Origin: Eledone cirrhosa | Taxonomy: Eukaryota | Direction: 5' to 3' | NCBI GenBank assembly: GCA_964016885.1 | Contig: OZ024747.1 | Coordinates: 28,582,001-28,646,000 of the forward strand | DNA length: 64,000 bases | In this document: positions 742-52,532 of the stretch, piece by piece | Layout of the letters: each line of letters starts with the position of its first letter | Position numbering within the stretch: position 1 is the stretch's first letter | Made by a program: the position numbers and the translations under genes | The notes under the pieces: model-generated | Databases searched by the model: none | What the model was told of the DNA's origin: nothing | The model's input: only the letters and a program-made list of their open reading frames with translations

Positions 742-825
742 TGTCAGAAGTGGGATTCAAACCCACGCCGGAAAGACCCGACTGCGACCTCAACGCAGCG
801 CCTTAGACCGCTCGGCCATCCTGAC
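742..825 (-). tRNA. tRNA-Leu gene or pseudogene with a CAG-type body and a GAG anticodon
   Basis: Reverse complement reads GTCAGGATGGCCGAGCGGTCTAAGGCGCTGCGTT-GAG-GTCGCAGTCGGGTCTTTCCGGCGTGGGTTTGAATCCCACTTCTGACA. It folds into a cloverleaf with a long variable arm. The T-loop is TTTGAAT instead of TTCGAAT. Confidence 0.9.
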
Positions 826-1918: not shown

Positions 1919-2265
1919 TCATTTCTGAATTTGTTTAGCAGGATTCTTTATCTGAAAACGGGTGTTGAAACCGATATTGTTATACTTTGGGAGGGTCATG
2001 TTGCCAATAAGAAACACATGCACCAGTTGCTTTCACTTCAATTTATTATAATAAATTTATAAATTTAGGAATTTATAAATTTCCGGTTGGTTGGTTGGTT
2101 CCACAACCAGATGGTTGTTTATATATTGTCAAAGTTCTTTCGTCACACATTCTGTGACCTCTTCAGTGACTGGAGATTCTTTTCTTTGTTTTTGTGCCTC
2201 TCCTTTGTTCTGTCCTACGCCATCTCGTTTCTGTGTGTGACTTGTGACAACACACACACAGAAAC
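1919..2265 (-). mobile_element. PLE pLTR fragment (same family as 28329-29206) with an HHR at 2128-2170
   Basis: Highly similar to 28329-28640. Minus strand reads gtca-CTGAAGA-g-gtcaca gaatg tgtgac-GAAA-gaac-TT^tgac. Confidence 0.85.
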
Positions 2266-2987: not shown

Positions 2988-3305
2988 ATGTAAGTATGCA
3001 TGTATACGTACATACATATATGTATACAGACGTACAGTAGCATGCACATATATATATAAATTCAGGCTGTTCAGTTTGTTTACAAACGAACAAAGCGACG
3101 TTATAATAAGCGCCGCTAAACTGATACGTGCATGTATGTATGTGTACCTGTATGGATATGTATGTATATATGTATATATATATATGTGCATGCTACTGTA
3201 CGTCTGTATACATATATGTATGTATGTATACATGCATACTTACATTTAAGTAAGTGCCATACTAAGAGTGAGAAATGAAATTTCGTTTTCATTTTGTTTC
3301 AATTT
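2988..3305 (+). mobile_element. Diverged partial relative of the 422-bp HHR repeat with a 5' inverted duplication
   Basis: Shares the blocks tttgtttacaaac, ttataataa, atacgtgcat, tactgtacgtc.gtatacatatatgtatgta and tactaagagtg.gaaatgaaat with the array unit. 2988-3058 is the reverse complement of 3175-3245. Confidence 0.85.
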
Positions 3306-3323
3306 ATATATATATATATATAT

Positions 3324-3871
<548 letters not shown>

Positions 3872-3974
3872 TATATATATATATATACACATATATATAT
3901 ATATATACACATATATATATATATATACACATATATATATATATATACACATATATATATATATATATATACAC

Positions 3975-4183
<209 letters not shown>

Positions 4184-4196
4184 TATATATATATAT

Positions 4197-4265
<69 letters not shown>

Positions 4266-4356
4266 TATATATATATATATACACACACATATATATATAT
4301 ATATATATACACACACATATATATATATATATACACACACATATATATATATATAT

Positions 4357-4395
<39 letters not shown>

Positions 4396-4446
4396 TATAT
4401 ATATATATATATATACACACACATATATATATATATATATACACAC

Positions 4447-4555
<109 letters not shown>

Positions 4556-4628
4556 CATATATATATATATATACACATATATATATATATATATATACAC
4601 ATATATATATATATATATACACATACAC

Positions 4629-4659
<31 letters not shown>

Positions 4660-4676
4660 TATATATACACATACAC

Positions 4677-4707
<31 letters not shown>

Positions 4708-4736
4708 TATATATACACATATATATATATATATAT

Positions 4737-4783
<47 letters not shown>

Positions 4784-4790
4784 TATATAT

Positions 4791-4825
<35 letters not shown>

Positions 4826-4828
<3 letters not shown>

Positions 4829-7800
4829 CGTTCCTTTGTCAGTGTTGAACAAACGAGCAACGGTGGTTGCTAGACACTACGGCTTAATACGGGATGTTTG
4901 TTTACAAACACACCGAGCATTATAATAAATGTTCGGTGAATCCATACGTGCATATATATATGTGTGCATGTATGTATATATATATATACATACTACTGTA
5001 CGTCGGTATACATATATGTATGTACGTGTACATACTTATATTTAAGTAACAGCCGTACTAAGAGTGGGAAATGAAATATCGTTTCATTTTTTCCGTTTAT
5101 CGTTTTCGGTGCACCCGGCCGATTAACCCACTCGATATGCATATTGGGCTACTCAGCCGTTAATATGCATAAGGTAAGTATATACGTTCAACAATCTGGC
5201 AGGAAGGTATACGTTGCTGACGATAGCTAACAAGCTTGAAACTAGTACAGCGTTCCTTTGTCAGTGTTGAACAAACGAGCAACGGTGGTTGCTAGACACT
5301 ACGGCTTAATACGGGATGTTTGTTTACAAACACACCGAGCATTATAATAAATGTTCGGTGAATCCATACGTGCATATATATATGTGTGCATGTATGTATA
5401 TATATATATACATACTACTGTACGTCGGTATACATATATGTATGTACGTGTACATACTTATATTTAAGTAACAGCTGTACTAAGAGTGGGAAATGAAATA
5501 TCGTTTCATTTTTTCCGTTTATCGTTTTCGGTGCACCCGGCCGATTAACCCACTCGATATGCATATTGGGCTACTCAGCCGTTAATATGCATAAGGTAAG
5601 TATATACGTTCAACAATCTGGCAGGAAGGTATACGTTGCTGACGATAGCTAACAAGCTTGAAACTAGTACAGCGTTCCTTTGTCAGTGTTGAACAAACGA
5701 GCAACGGTGGTTGCTAGACACTACGGCTTAATACGGGATGTTTGTTTACAAACACACCGAGCATTATAATAAATGTTCGGTGAATCCATACGTGCATATA
5801 TATATGTGTGCATGTATGTATATATATATATACATACTACTGTACGTCGGTATACATATATGTATGTACGTGTACATACTTATATTTAAGTAACAGCCGT
5901 ACTAAGAGTGGGAAATGAAATATCGTTTCATTTTTTCCGTTTATCGTTTTCGGTGCACCCGGCCGATTAACCCACTCGATATGCATATTGGGCTACTCAG
6001 CCGTTAATATGCATAAGGTAAGTATATACGTTCAACAATCTGGCAGGAAGGTATACGTTGCTGACGATAGCTAACAAGCTTGAAACTAGTACAGCGTTCC
6101 TTTGTCAGTGTTGAACAAACGAGCAACGGTGGTTGCTAGACACTACGGCTTAATACGGGATGTTTGTTTACAAACACACCGAGCATTATAATAAATGTTC
6201 GGTGAATCCATACGTGCATATATATATGTGTGCATGTATGTATATATATATATACATACTACTGTACGTCGGTATACATATATGTATGTACGTGTACATA
6301 CTTATATTTAAGTAACAGCCGTACTAAGAGTGGGAAATGAAATATCGTTTCATTTTTTCCGTTTATCGTTTTCGGTGCACCCGGCCGATTAACCCACTCG
6401 ATATGCATATTGGGCTACTCAGCCGTTAATATGCATAAGGTAAGTATATACGTTCAACAATCTGGCAGGAAGGTATACGTTGCTGACGATAGCTAACAAG
6501 CTTGAAACTAGTACAGCGTTCCTTTGTCAGTGTTGAACAAACGAGCAACGGTGGTTGCTAGACACTACGGCTTAATACGGGATGTTTGTTTACAAACACA
6601 CCGAGCATTATAATAAATGTTCGGTGAATCCATACGTGCATATATATATGTGTGCATGTATGTATATATATATATACATACTACTGTACGTCGGTATACA
6701 TATATGTATGTACGTGTACATACTTATATTTAAGTAACAGCCGTACTAAGAGTGGGAAATGAAATATCGTTTCATTTTTTCCGTTTATCGTTTTCGGTGC
6801 ACCCGGCCGATTAACCCACTCGATATGCATATTGGGCTACTCAGCCGTTAATATGCATAAGGTAAGTATATACGTTCAACAATCTGGCAGGAAGGTATAC
6901 GTTGCTGACGATAGCTAACAAGCTTGAAACTAGTACAGCGTTCCTTTGTCAGTGTTGAACAAACGAGCAACGGTGGTTGCTAGACACTACGGCTTAATAC
7001 GGGATGTTTGTTTACAAACACACCGAGCATTATAATAAATGTTCGGTGAATCCATACGTGCATATATATATGTGTGCATGTATGTATATATATATATACA
7101 TACTACTGTACGTCGGTATACATATATGTATGTACGTGTACATACTTATATTTAAGTAACAGCCGTACTAAGAGTGGGAAATGAAATATCGTTTCATTTT
7201 TTCCGTTTATCGTTTTCGGTGCACCCGGCCGATTAACCCACTCGATATGCATATTGGGCTACTCAGCCGTTAATATGCATAAGGTAAGTATATACGTTCA
7301 ACAATCTGGCAGGAAGGTATACGTTGCTGACGATAGCTAACAAGCTTGAAACTAGTACAGCGTTCCTTTGTCAGTGTTGAACAAACGAGCAACGGTGGTT
7401 GCTAGACACTACGGCTTAATACGGGATGTTTGTTTACAAACACACCGAGCATTATAATAAATGTTCGGTGAATCCATACGTGCATATATATATGTGTGCA
7501 TGTATGTATATATATATATACATACTACTGTACGTCGGTATACATATATGTATGTACGTGTACATACTTATATTTAAGTAACAGCCGTACTAAGAGTGGG
7601 AAATGAAATATCGTTTCATTTTTTCCGTTTATCGTTTTCGGTGCACCCGGCCGATTAACCCACTCGATATGCATATTGGGCTACTCAGCCGTTAATATGC
7701 ATAAGGTAAGTATATACGTTCAACAATCTGGCAGGAAGGTATACGTTGCTGACGATAGCTAACAAGCTTGAAACTAGTACAGCGTTCCTTTGTCAGTGTT

Positions 7801-8417
7801 GAACAAACGAGCAACGGTGGTTGCTAGACACTACGGCTTAATACGGGATGTTTGTTTACAAACACACCGAGCATTATAATAAATGTTCGGTGAATCCATA
7901 CGTGCATATATATATGTGTGCATGTATGTATATATATATATACATACTACTGTACGTCGGTATACATATATGTATGTACGTGTACATACTTATATTTAAG
8001 TAACAGCCGTACTAAGAGTGGGAAATGAAATATCGTTTCATTTTTTCCGTTTATCGTTTTCGGTGCACCCGGCCGATTAACCCACTCGATATGCATATTG
8101 GGCTACTCAGCCGTTAATATGCATAAGGTAAGTATATACGTTCAACAATCTGGCAGGAAGGTATACGTTGCTGACGATAGCTAACAAGCTTGAAACTAGT
8201 ACAGCGTTCCTTTGTCAGTGTTGAACAAACGAGCAACGGTGGTTGCTAGACACTACGGCTTAATACGGGATGTTTGTTTACAAACACACCGAGCATTATA
8301 ATAAATGTTCGGTGAATCCATACGTGCATATATATATGTGTGCATGTATGTATATATATATATACATACTACTGTACGTCGGTATACATATATGTATGTA
8401 CGTGTACATACTTATAT
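4826..8417 (+). repeat. Tandem array of a 422-bp unit (8 full copies + 216 bp), retrozyme-like, with one HHR per junction
   Basis: tacagcgttcc recurs at 4824, 5246, 5668, 6090, 6512, 6934, 7356, 7778 and 8200. Only one difference between units was noticed (C>T at 5476). The array is embedded in (TA)n. Confidence 0.97.
5186..5272 (+). ncRNA. Type I hammerhead ribozyme with extended stem I (first of 8 copies, period 422)
   Basis: acgttg-CTGACGA(5217-5223)-tagct aaca agctt-GAAA(5238-5241)-ctag-TA^cagcgt, with cleavage predicted after 5247. Stem I extends through aagg/cctt, ctggca/tgtcag and gttcaaca/tgttgaac. Confidence 0.93.
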
Positions 8418-8453
8418 ATACACATATATATATATATACACATATATATATAT

Positions 8454-8490
<37 letters not shown>

Positions 8491-8503
8491 TATATATATA
8501 TAT

Positions 8504-10798
8504 ATATTATAATGAAATGACAGGAGGCTGGATTTGTGTAAATCCTTGAAAGGTTTAAATGTAATAATGAACAGCGGCATGGGACTGAATATATCTAACC
8601 ACCATTCGGACTGTGGCTACTCGGTGTTTTTCGCCTACCGCCAACCTGGCCCATGGCTACTTCCCTCTCAGAATATTCGGACCTCGACGAAACTCTACGG
8701 ATTATACCATAACATGTATTGTACTGCACTGTATCAACTGAATTCGCTACCCTATACTTCTGGGCATGTATAACTCCCACTGAATTCCCAGACTCGAACA
8801 CACACTGACTCCATTTCCACATCTATATGCATTATCTGACTGTAACTTGAACTATATTGTATTTCTCCTGTGTCTTGAACTATCCATTTACCCGACTCTT
8901 GTTTGTTTATTTATATCTTTATATATTTATTTGCTGTATTAATGCTTTTCCACATATTCTACCTCTATACATCCATGTACTTTTTACTTCCCTTATTCGG
9001 ACTTTTACTCGCGTGTACCCTTAGCACACGACACTGGAATGTCTCCCCCTGGGAACATTAATACTGCAACCTGAACTATATTGTACTTCTACTATGTCTT
9101 GTTTTCTCCATCTTACTCCAACACCACTCTTGTTGGTTTATTTACATATTTATATTTATATATTGATATATTTATATATTTATACCTTTGCTTTATCAAT
9201 GTGCTCTTCCACGTATTCCTCTTCTATGTATCCATGTATTTCTACTCCTCCTATTGGGACTTTTGCTCACTTGTCCCCATTAGCACACGACACTAGAATG
9301 TCTCCCCCTGAGAACAAAAATAAATATTACCCGACTATATCCCGTACTCTACATCCCACTAGGGTAAATTATAGATCTACATAATACAATTAACGTCTCT
9401 TCAAAAAAGACTCTCTTTAATTAAACCCCGCAACCCAAAACCTTATATAAGTTTTTTTTAAATGTTTGATTTTCAATTTTCTGTTTGTTCAATTCTCAAT
9501 CCTCTTACTCTTTAATTTTATAATGTTATTCTGAATTCCTTCAACTTCATCCTATAAATTTAAACAATATTTTAGAGTTCCAACTTTCTGTCGGACTGTT
9601 GGGTGGGTTTTAATGGCGGCGCACCCTGAGGCAAGGGCCTACCTTGAGTGCTTGGAAAAATAAATTTCCCCTTCTTTCGGTAAATGAAAATACTCGGAGT
9701 GGCTTAATTCGTCCTGGAGCGCGGCCGGTTTTTAACCGCCACATAGTACCTTTAAATTACAGACCAAATCAGAAATATTAGATATATCAACCTTAAAATG
9801 TTAAACTGTTTAACTTTAAATTTTCTAATTTCTTTGATATTAATTATTAATTTTTAACTTCATCCTATAAGTCTAAACAAAAACGTAACGTTTCAATCTT
9901 CTGCTCACACATTATAACACACTGACCCCCACTATATTCACCTCTGCTAAGATACGGGTCCCTGTGAAAATTTTCTCGCGCCACTCCTGGCCTGACTGTA
10001 GTCTGACATTAATATCGACCTTTCTTCCTCTTTCTTTCTATCTTCCTTCTTGTAGCCATCAACCCTTACTCTTCTACTTCTTCCTTTTCTTCCTTCTCTT
10101 CTCCCCTCTTTCTGTCTTCCTCCCGCAGACTTATCTTCCTTCTCCCTCTTTGTTCGCCCATATCTGACCGGTAGTAGTTGTTTAGATACGGGTCCCGTAG
10201 AATAAAAAAATTTCTTCGCGACAACCCTGGCCTGACTGTAATACCGTCCTTTCCTCCTCTTTCTTTCTGTCTTTCTTCTTATAGCTGACATTAACCCTGG
10301 CTTCTCCTCTTCTTCCTTCCCCCTTCTTCTCTCTCCTTCCTTTCTTTCTTTCTTTTGTCTTGTAACTTATGTTCCCATCCCTTTCTGTTTTCCTTTATCT
10401 GACCGGTAGTAGCACACTGTGAGCCTTAGCCACGTCACTCGAGGGCGACCGGCTAAGATAGAGGGTGCAAGATAGCGGTCGCCCTCGGGTCCTCGATTTT
10501 TAGCCCCATGGATTTTATCTATTACATTCACGTATTATATTTTAAATACCTGATGATATCACCGGATTCACACGAAACCCGGTCATTGAAATGATCATAG
10601 TATAATAAACCTTTCAAGGATTTACACAAATCCAGCCTCCTATCATTTCATTATAATATTTAACTCCGTAATAGCACCACCAACTACAAAAACAAAGACG
10701 GTTGAACTGCTTTACGTTGAGTACTCTCTATATTATTACATTACGATTGACCATACGGAATAGACCAGCTCTATACAGTGGTGAACCACAAACCTGAA
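8504..10798 (+). mobile_element. 5'-truncated PLE 3' region (~2.3 kb) with an inverted pLTR piece, internal duplications and an HHR
   Basis: 8504-8557 is the reverse complement of 10606-10659. Diverged direct repeats lie at ~8845-9055/9065-9315 and ~9948-10175/10183-10412. There is a GC hairpin at ~10440-10488 and an HHR at 10546-10603. Confidence 0.75.
10546..10603 (+). ncRNA. Type I hammerhead ribozyme
   Basis: atac-CTGATGA-tatcaccgg...ccggtcatt-GAAA-tgatca-TA^gtat. Stem III is the palindrome ATGATCAT. Confidence 0.85.
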
Positions 10799-11514: not shown

Positions 11515-12138
11515 TAATAATAATAAATGTCAAGACTAAAATTCAAAGAGGGCTGAATAAGGATAAATATATATCAAATATATAAGAACCCTAGAGCAAA
11601 TATTTATTAAAATAACAAATTAAAGTTTAAGCAAAGAATCGCTGCTTTCACCCTTAACGGGATCTTCTGAAACTAAAAAAAAATCAATTTGTGAACGCAG
11701 AAGTAAATATTTCAAAAAACGTTGCAACCGAAGGAAAACAGGAAGACGATACTTTGGTTCGTGAAGACGTTCCCTGGCAATGAACAGTAAAAAGCAAAGA
11801 AAATAGGTTGTAATGTGGAGCGATGAGAACAATTACGTGCAAAGTCAAAACCACGTTTATGGTATAAATGGAGTCATTAGACTAATGTTCTATTTAGGAA
11901 ACCGAATGATTCTCGGCTTCAGAGTTAAGAATAATTGTTTCTACTTTTTCCATTCGTTGCCAGGGAACGTCTTCACAAACCAAAGTATCGTCTTCCTGTT
12001 TTCCTTCGGTTGCAACGTTTTTCGAAATATTTACTTCTGCGTTCACAGATTGATTTTTTTTTTAGTTTCAGAAGATCCCGTTAAGGGTGATAGCAGCGAT
12101 TCTTTGCTTAAACTTTAATCTGTTATTTTAATAAATAT
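11515..12138 (-). mobile_element. PLE pLTR with an inverted copy; variant HHR at 11624-11674 (minus)
   Basis: Arms ~11600-11784 and ~11953-12138 show a few mismatches. Minus strand reads agttt-CAGAAGA-tccc gttaa gggt-GAAA-gcag cgattct ttgc-TT^aaact. The plus-arm copy has GATA in place of GAAA. Confidence 0.7.
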
Positions 12139-28328: not shown

Positions 28329-29206
28329 TTCGTTTCTGAATTTGTTTAGCAAGATTCTTTATCTGAAAACGTGTGTTGAAACCGATATTGTTATGCTTTG
28401 GGAGGGTCATGTTGCCAATAAGAAACACACGCACCAGTTGCTTTCACTCCAATTTATTATAAATTAAATTTATAAATTTAAGAATTTATAAATTTCTGGT
28501 TGGTTCCACAACCAGACGATTGTTCATATATTGTCAAAGTTCTTTCGTCACACATTCTGTGACCTCTTCAGTGACTGGAGATTCTTTTCTTTGTTTTTGT
28601 GCCTCTCCTTTGTTCTGTCCTACGCCATCTTGTTTTTGTGTGTGTTGTGTGCTTCGTTTGTGCATGTGTTACATCAGGGTGCCTGTGTGTGTTTATATTT
28701 GTTTATTTACATGTTACTGGTTGGTTGTTTGTTCTATGTGTGTGTGTGCTTTCATTTTGTCCTTAATTGTAAGTTGCGATGTTGCTATTCCATTCATGTT
28801 TTCTATTTAATTTGGGTTGGAGTTCATTTATGTTTATTGCCTCTGTGATTTGTCTAAACATTGCGTCTTTTCTGTATGTAGATTCTATTTTTATTTCTAT
28901 GTTCTCTAATTTACCCTTATGTTCTATTTTAGCATGTTGGTGGAGTACAGGTGATTGTTTACTATCTTGAAGCTCTCGCCAGTGTTCATTTATCCGTTCT
29001 CCTATACTACGAGCTGTCTCACCTATGTACACTATATTCTTATCTCTACATTGTCCTTCAGTACATCTTATGCTATATATTACATTTCTAGTTTTACAAT
29101 TAATATGGGAGCTTAGTTTACAGATTATACATTTCTTATCTATACAGGGAGGTCTTTGAAAAGGGTATGTATTGCTAATAAGTGTTTTTATGGAGTCTCT
29201 CGTAGT
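28329..29206 (-). mobile_element. 5'-truncated Penelope-like element: GIY-YIG C-terminus + 3' UTR/pLTR with HHR (28533-28575)
   Basis: The GIY-YIG ORF ends at 28763. About 190 nt downstream is gtca-CTGAAGA-ggtcacagaatgtgtgac-GAAA-gaac-TT^tgac. Confidence 0.9.
28763..29206 (-). pseudogene. PLE GIY-YIG endonuclease domain with an upstream Cys-rich linker (truncated ORF)
   Basis: CIDKKCIIC...CKTRNVIYSIRC...C...YIGETARSIGERINEH...HQH...H...RQITEAINI...LNRKHEW. The N-terminal part of ORF 28763-29473 is merely antisense RTE. Confidence 0.9.
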
Positions 29207-51800: not shown

Positions 51801-52091
51801 GAACCTTGAACTAATATCTGGTCCTTGAAAATATAGTACCCACCATTAGAATTGTGACCGGCTGACAATTTACATGTTAGATATCTGGGGTCACAATGTA
51901 GAGACAGCCCTTTGTTTTCACTAGTTGGAGCTGTCTCAACCCATCTTCAGTAAACACTGACTCAAGCACAAGTATTTATTGATACCCCTCTAATGTAATG
52001 ATCTGTTATAATTTTTCTAATGCTTTTTACATTGTAATTTCTAAGTTATAATTCTTTTTCAGCCAAGAATAATATTTTACAAAATTCAAAA

Positions 52092-52532
52092 ATGGCTGAA
52101 GCCAAAAAAGATGTCAGATCTACAGAGTCAAAAGGGAAAGAAAAACAGAAGAAACTCCGTGAATTGGTGGATCAGGAGGAATATATACTGAGAAAGCGGC
52201 TTCCACGGACATTTCCAAAGCGACCTAATGATGTATACATTAGCAAAAAGACTAATTTCAAAGCCCAAATGATTCGTTGTCAGAAATTTCTGGATAATGG
52301 CAACAAAGTGTATATCCATGCTCTTGGAGCTGCTATCAACAGGGCAGTGAACCTAGCATTACAACTACAGGTAAATGGCTTTGGATCTGTGGAAATCTCC
52401 ACTAATACTTCTACTGTTAACCTCACAGATGATTTGGAACCAACTAATGATAACTTAGACTATAAGACATTATCAAGAATTAACTCAGCCATCCACATCA
52501 AGGTTTTTCGGCCGCCTAAGTTAAAAGAATGA
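52092..52532 (+). CDS. POP7: Ribonuclease P/MRP protein subunit p20 (Alba-like), 146 aa, single coding exon
   Basis: RKRLP...PNDVYISKKTNFKAQMIRCQKFLD...IHALGAAINRAVNLALQL...TSTVNLTDDLEP...RINSAIHIKV. Acceptor ttctttttcAG at 52061-52062. AATAAA lies just after the stop. Confidence 0.95.
   Translation: MAEAKKDVRSTESKGKEKQKKLRELVDQEEYILRKRLPRTFPKRPNDVYISKKTNFKAQMIRCQKFLDNGNKVYIHALGAAINRAVNLALQLQVNGFGSVEISTNTSTVNLTDDLEPTNDNLDYKTLSRINSAIHIKVFRPPKLKE

Follow-up and report, generated by a model that had tools for sequence, protein, structure and literature searches.

The 64,000-nt stretch of Eledone cirrhosa DNA analysed here (contig OZ024747.1, positions 28,582,001 to 28,646,000; hereafter, the window) contains insertions of a hammerhead repeat that is very probably a non-autonomous element, a non-LTR retrozyme, inserted by the reverse transcriptase (RT)/GIY-YIG protein of a Penelope-like element (PLE) that targets (TA)n. 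Mobilisation by such an enzyme had been proposed in an earlier note on this DNA. The proposal is now supported by the restriction of the 3' ends of the repeat to two sites in the unit and by the presence of a PLE family, PLE-1, whose ends are of the same two kinds, separated by 60 nt, and which likewise targets (TA)n. We strongly infer the mobilisation by a PLE enzyme from the insertion footprint; a pairing with a specific helper element is not part of the claim.

The longer insertion in the window is a single-armed array of subfamily A (4826-8417, forward strand), which consists of 8.5 units of 422 nt with one difference among all the full units, and which lies between (TA)n tracts at 3672-4825 and 8413-8511. 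The array contains no open reading frame (ORF) of at least 150 amino acid residues and is therefore non-coding, without an LTR layout; because an ORF for RT and GIY-YIG is absent from the repeat unit, the repeat was not classed as an autonomous EN+ PLE. A motif scan predicted a minimal type I hammerhead ribozyme with a short palindromic stem III once per unit (5212-5252, forward strand; predicted cut after 5247), and the motif recurs every 422 nt in 8 copies, that is, at 8/8 unit junctions within the window. An Rfam search of the window at the gathering threshold did not report the hammerhead and reported only a tRNA. We numbered the unit from the base following the predicted cut (position 1 = 5248). 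The units of subfamilies A (422 nt) and B (466 nt) have a GC content of 0.37-0.39, and the predicted fold of the unit RNA is much more stable than those of shuffled sequences (z = -7.4). When 203 units from many chromosomes were compared, 136 were equal to the reference (some units were counted twice where the stretches overlap). The hammerhead repeat is young and has thousands of junctions in the genome, in (TA)n tracts. Four contig sets compared with it yielded short or partial matches only, which carry no information about its expression.

The shorter insertion (2988-3305) is a two-armed copy of subfamily B, which has arrays of its own and is identical to subfamily A in 352/476 aligned columns. 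The left arm (2988-3058, reverse strand) has its 3' end at 2988, which corresponds to unit position 216 (end 1) and adjoins a (TA)n target tract at 2526-2989. The right arm (3059-3305, forward strand) is 5'-truncated, lacks the hammerhead and has its 3' end at unit position 275 (end 2). The earlier note had described an inverted arm that ends at the same nucleotide as the array and a forward copy that runs about 60 nt further as a tail, and all of this was confirmed. When reverse-complemented, 2988-3058 agrees with 3175-3245 at 70/71 positions, and position 3245 in the forward copy aligns to unit position 216, at which the subfamily A array also stops (8417). The forward copy extends from there to 3305 (3307 when the TA microhomology is included; unit position 273-275), after which (TA)n resumes, so that the tail between end 1 and end 2 occupies 3246-3305 (forward strand; 59 nt in A and 62 nt in B). 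Since 2-5 nt of TA microhomology blurs each junction of both arms and of the A array, 'the same nucleotide' is to be understood as one site, with a tolerance of a few bases.

To examine the ends beyond the window, we searched the genome with one A unit (of 1,217 candidate places, 39 were scored and gave 337 matches) and, among the 150 matches listed, analysed 37 distinct loci (the window and 36 others), which were picked for holding a full unit and not by their ends. The 66 tallied 3' ends lay at unit positions 215 (1 end), 216 (27), 219 (3), 270 (1), 271 (2), 272 (1), 274 (1) and 275 (30); all 66 were thus within 215-219 or 270-275. This tally takes in two arms of 14-17 nt read by eye (L035 and L067) and the B arm of L041, and it leaves out an end at an N gap (L048), a rearranged duplicate pair (L059; 418 and 216), internal extra ends (L053; 265 and 266) and an older insertion (L050). 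When the four readable ends of L059 and L053 were added, three of which were off-site, 67/70 ends were on-site. Exact junction patterns in the whole genome gave 1,399 matches for end 1 and 3,426 for end 2, a ratio that is not a measured bias because the two patterns cover the subfamilies unequally. Further, older subfamilies were observed at L050:619-1254, L104:2923-3836, L167, L169, L181 and L188; where such copies were readable (L050, L098 and L188), they too stopped at end 1 or end 2.

The two kinds of ends are not combined freely. Two head-to-head arms with both ends readable were found in 29 of the 37 A loci, and in 28 of these 29 pairs one arm stopped at end 1 and the other at end 2 (binomial P = 5.6e-8 if each arm chose its end independently); the long arm of a pair can be either one. 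In the sole exception (L041), an A arm is fused into a B arm, and this locus is best read as the result of two events. The A-type arm at L041 (1719-4609) changes to B-type at its 5' end within homologous DNA and faces the B arm; this switch may represent recombination or a template switch between the subfamilies. For subfamily B, we read 52 stretches by eye, two of which are probably duplicates of one event. Both ends were on-site in 27 pairs, with one of each kind in 26/27 (L075 has two end-2 arms); the other stretches comprised 7 pairs with an off-site or unclear end, 13 single arms with on-site ends and 5 cases truncated at the boundary of the sequence retrieved.

The inner junctions and the 5' ends, in contrast to the outer 3' ends, showed no fixed position. 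Among 27 inner junctions, the arms overlapped by 1-10 nt in 14, carried 2-40 inserted bases in 11 and were blunt in 2. Their positions were scattered, and fixed inversion breakpoints were thus rejected. The histogram of ends and breakpoints suggested in the earlier note therefore upholds the part concerning the 3' ends, which in both subfamilies cluster at two sites, neither at random nor at the best TA microhomologies, and not the part concerning the inversion breakpoints. The 5' end of the array in the window, which is at the hammerhead cut, had suggested run-off on cleaved RNA; this is not a rule, since the 68 5' ends analysed are spread across the unit and only 2/68 lie 10 nt or less from the cut. 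Flanks duplicated over 9-10 nt were found at L031, L036, L038 and L139 (4 of the 24 loci printed, most of the others being uninformative pure (TA)n). Target duplications of >4 bp at dispersed copies, by which retrozymes are recognised, are therefore present in the hammerhead repeat, and so are the features of PLE-mobilised insertions, namely two fixed 3' ends, a tail at one end only, an inverted 5'-truncated copy and a (TA)n target.

PLE-1 is abundant in this genome (65,698 candidates) and is represented in the window by a 3' part with GIY-YIG, hammerhead and tail (28330-29194, reverse strand) and by a short 3' fragment (1921-2260, reverse strand), both ending at PLE-1 end 2. Its longer copies encode an RT (a weak match, E = 2e-4, below the Pfam cut-off) and a GIY-YIG domain (above the cut-off). 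In the PLE-1 loci examined, 33/33 arm ends fell at one of two sites, separated by 60 nt (8 ends at one and 25 at the other, one of the 25 being a sequence variant), and 5/6 two-armed loci had one end of each kind. The target is (TA)n, as for the hammerhead repeat. Copies of PLE-1 are 93.5-100% identical (median 97.7%, 351 pairs), indicating that its activity overlaps that of the hammerhead repeat.

The earlier note had also suggested looking for a full-length PLE whose pLTR matches the repeat unit, and none was found among the four hammerhead-bearing families compared, which are part of the PLE families of this genome, or by a pattern search. When units A and B were locally aligned with the four hammerhead-bearing 3' regions, nothing was clearly above 100 shuffles: the scores against the PLE-1 pLTR and two other families were no better than those of the shuffles, and the score against the PLE-2 pLTR was marginal (2/100 shuffles were as high). 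The pattern search, for this hammerhead preceded by a different sequence, covers only partners differing at all three excluded bases and gave 96 matches without a dominant upstream family. A low-stringency blastn search with part of the unit against PLE loci matched only more copies of the repeat, and a profile of three PLE-1 ORFs detected in the retrieved DNA pieces of PLE-1 and one related family, PLE-2. The predicted folds around the PLE-1 ends had no obvious resemblance to that of the repeat. We also observed a PLE-2 copy at L056:1-660 that has a GIY-YIG end and a hammerhead, and other PLE-2 copies that carry the PLE-1 end-1 sequence.

Two further hammerhead elements, unrelated to the repeat, are present nearby: family a, a palindromic element (266-681), one arm of which has a tail of about 88 nt, and family b, a young element (3324-3671) with two arms and a tail of about 65 nt on one of them. 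The earlier note had stated that the inverted copy lacking the tail is a layout shared by the PLE remnants nearby. The layout is indeed shared, and assignment to an RT/GIY-YIG family holds only for 1921-2260 and 28330-29194; no protein-coding part of their own was found for 266-681 (15 loci) or 3324-3671 (20 loci), and the three tblastn matches at these loci (L195, L225 and L226) were all to the separate PLE-1 family. Both therefore look like further non-autonomous elements. The family at 266-681 (L212-L226) forms a single long palindrome, whose centre is shared by most of the 15 copies, unlike the scattered inversion points of the retrozyme, and seems to move as a ready-made palindrome. The copies of the family at 3324-3671 (L192-L211; 524 candidates) are 99-100% identical and have several hundred non-coding bases upstream and the 65-nt tail. 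At L033:1500-2232, an array of units of about 85 nt, which consist of the family-b hammerhead alone, abuts the 5' end of an A arm. The window also contains a 2.1-kb element (8501-10662) that has internal duplications and whose two ends, in inverted orientation, share a 57-bp direct match, for which the PLE-1 ORF profile gave no PLE-1-like protein match, and a 540-bp imperfect palindrome (11600-12138; 83%), which terminates in (TA)n. A tRNA with a long variable arm lies amid (TA)n tracts (742-825, reverse strand). An intron-less open frame of 164 amino acid residues (52038-52532, forward strand), which is not repeat-like, presumably encodes a protein resembling an RNase P/MRP small subunit.

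The two end sites have distinct positions in the predicted fold of the unit. A 6-bp hairpin (3237-3252, forward strand, in the B insertion) is predicted to hold end 1 in its 4-nt loop, and its stem is unchanged and its loop variable in 7/7 aligned copies. End 2 is just past a second predicted hairpin; in one A unit, the end-1 hairpin (5455-5470), the second hairpin and end 2 (5522) occupy 5455-5522 (forward strand). Two-sided changes were found in 4/88 pairs among the 7 close copies, and with covariation this thin the fold is a prediction. We suggest that the PLE endonuclease would make a staggered cut in (TA)n and that each 3'-OH would prime reverse transcription at an internal position of the RNA, one within the small hairpin loop (end 1) and the other just past the hairpin that follows (end 2), with TA microhomology over a few bases fixing the exact priming base in each case. 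Both cDNAs would pass the hammerhead site, up to several units, and since they would run through that site repeatedly, the template would be a circle or an uncleaved multimer. The two cDNAs would then be joined head to head via microhomology or a short fill-in, giving the inversion. The insertion at 2988-3305 would be such an event with two short arms, and the array at 4826-8417 would be an end-1 arm alone. More tentatively, one two-headed PLE RNP might prime both cut ends on a single circular RNA, using a separate site for each, and roll round the circle from both sides. Inverted copies and tails at one end only might then be the normal product of twin target-primed reverse transcription, and the retrozyme might be recognised by RNA shape and site spacing alone, without sequence kinship to its helper PLE. 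We consider this extension possible, with the odds somewhat against it.

Three other explanations for these insertions were considered. Random ends over the unit, due to TA-rich microhomology alone, had been named in the earlier note as the finding that would count against PLE priming. Under such an explanation, the ends would be placed wherever TA in the unit pairs with the target, or slippage in (TA)n would trim the arm. Both end sites do end in TAT, and the junctions are blurred as described above. However, unit A has 22 alternating-TA runs of at least 3 nt, and all 66 tallied A ends use the same two of them (5 and 3 nt), which excludes chance as the cause of the coincidence of ends, while the longest runs (14, 10, 6 and 6 nt) received 0/66 ends. 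Two control sites that offer longer TA microhomology were examined in the whole genome: the 6-nt site at position 359 gave 0 matches, and the site at position 192 gave 146, a count that speaks for this explanation; among 100 listed of these 146, 98 have the non-A base, and they may reflect slippage in older copies. Furthermore, microhomology cannot yield one end of each kind per insertion. As the main cause it is refuted, with almost no probability left to it, and it sets only the last few bases.

According to the accessible part of the discussion in bioRxiv 10.64898/2026.07.22.740005, arrays may grow later in place by unequal crossing-over after a PLE has inserted single units or pLTR-like monomers. 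Such growth agrees with L055 and L108, in which the arms differ in private variants and those of an arm of 14 or more units are missing from the other arm and from its own first units; the difference points to some putative local expansion, and not every long array therefore derives from one template. As a general explanation it is unlikely, because the identity of 136/203 units to the reference across many chromosomes leaves little time for it, both arms exceed one unit in 20/27 junctions, and both arms carry one common private variant in L052, L106 and L107. The multi-unit arms on both sides argue that arrays were inserted ready-made. A LINE-type, non-PLE RT with twin priming, or rolling-circle insertion of DNA, might also mobilise the repeat. 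In its favour, the unit matches no PLE pLTR compared, and some RT ORFs in the window are, we assume, LINE-like. Against it, twin priming by a LINE begins at the 3' terminus of the RNA and leaves pieces that do not overlap, whereas the arms of the repeat overlap, start at two internal sites separated by one tail length, carry no poly(A) and lie in (TA)n targets, as those of PLE-1 do. The same features fit the PLE layouts described in the accessible text of PMC8557442 and PMC3846280. We consider a non-PLE mechanism very improbable, and insertion by a PLE enzyme remains our preferred reading.

As to which enzyme moves animal retrozymes, the parts of the literature available to us have so far argued by co-occurrence and pLTR homology. 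The hammerhead repeat provides insertion footprints at base level at thousands of near-identical sites. Since two exact priming positions are named, the claim is testable in the existing in vitro PLE assay, and the rule of one end of each kind constrains the origin of the PLE tail and inversion.

Animal non-LTR retrozymes were defined by Cervera and de la Pena (2020; PMC7229834), who proposed, in the portion accessible, that RT acts on circles to give tandem cDNA and that PLEs are strong candidates for its source. The tandem units of such retrozymes measure 150-450 nt, or as much as about 1 kb in vertebrates, with GC <50%. The present repeat resembles them in its tandem non-coding units, size, GC content, one type I hammerhead per unit, strongly self-paired RNA and vicinity to PLEs, with the B unit slightly exceeding the 450-nt upper size; it differs in its minimal PLE-like hammerhead, theirs being of the canonical invertebrate form. 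Li, Clavereau and Pollet (2026; bioRxiv 10.64898/2026.07.22.740005) back a PLE origin by co-occurrence and pLTR homology and suggest local tandem growth. As far as their accessible text goes, the retrozyme papers argue from co-occurrence, shared ribozyme type and Xenopus pLTR homology, whereas our argument is from insertion ends, with no pLTR homology found in the families compared.

Among EN+ PLEs, the sections available of Craig (2021; PMC8557442) and Arkhipova (2013; PMC3846280) describe an inverted copy, a one-sided tail, duplications of 8-10 bp and non-autonomous Chlamys elements. The repeat is like EN+ PLEs in its inverted 5'-truncated copy, tail at one end only, two RT starts, AT-rich or microsatellite targets and target duplications of that size; it differs in having no RT or endonuclease in the unit and in its tail of about 60 nt (also 60 nt in PLE-1 here), compared with the 30-40 nt usually quoted. 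The Chlamys MRC1 elements (PMC8557442) are likewise non-coding PLE dependants, with pLTRs and multicopy head-to-tail insertions; in the text available, however, MRC1-type elements are without canonical hammerheads and have a 3' end that generally resembles an autonomous family, while our repeat has a hammerhead and no matching partner was found in our searches. According to the accessible text of Frangieh (2024; PMC11167929), the purified Anolis PLE protein, a predicted dimer, cleaves AT-rich DNA on both strands and initiates reverse transcription at two internal positions, which define the tail. Those start sites are alike on both strands in vitro, whereas in the insertions described here each of the two ends uses a different site. 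Our literature search, which had most subscription papers outside its scope, found no publication in which the ends of retrozymes are mapped to the start sites of PLEs. The link between retrozymes and PLEs has already been proposed in print; the repeat described here is a new family of a known kind, and its footprint provides good evidence for that hypothesis, together with a strict rule for the pairing of ends.
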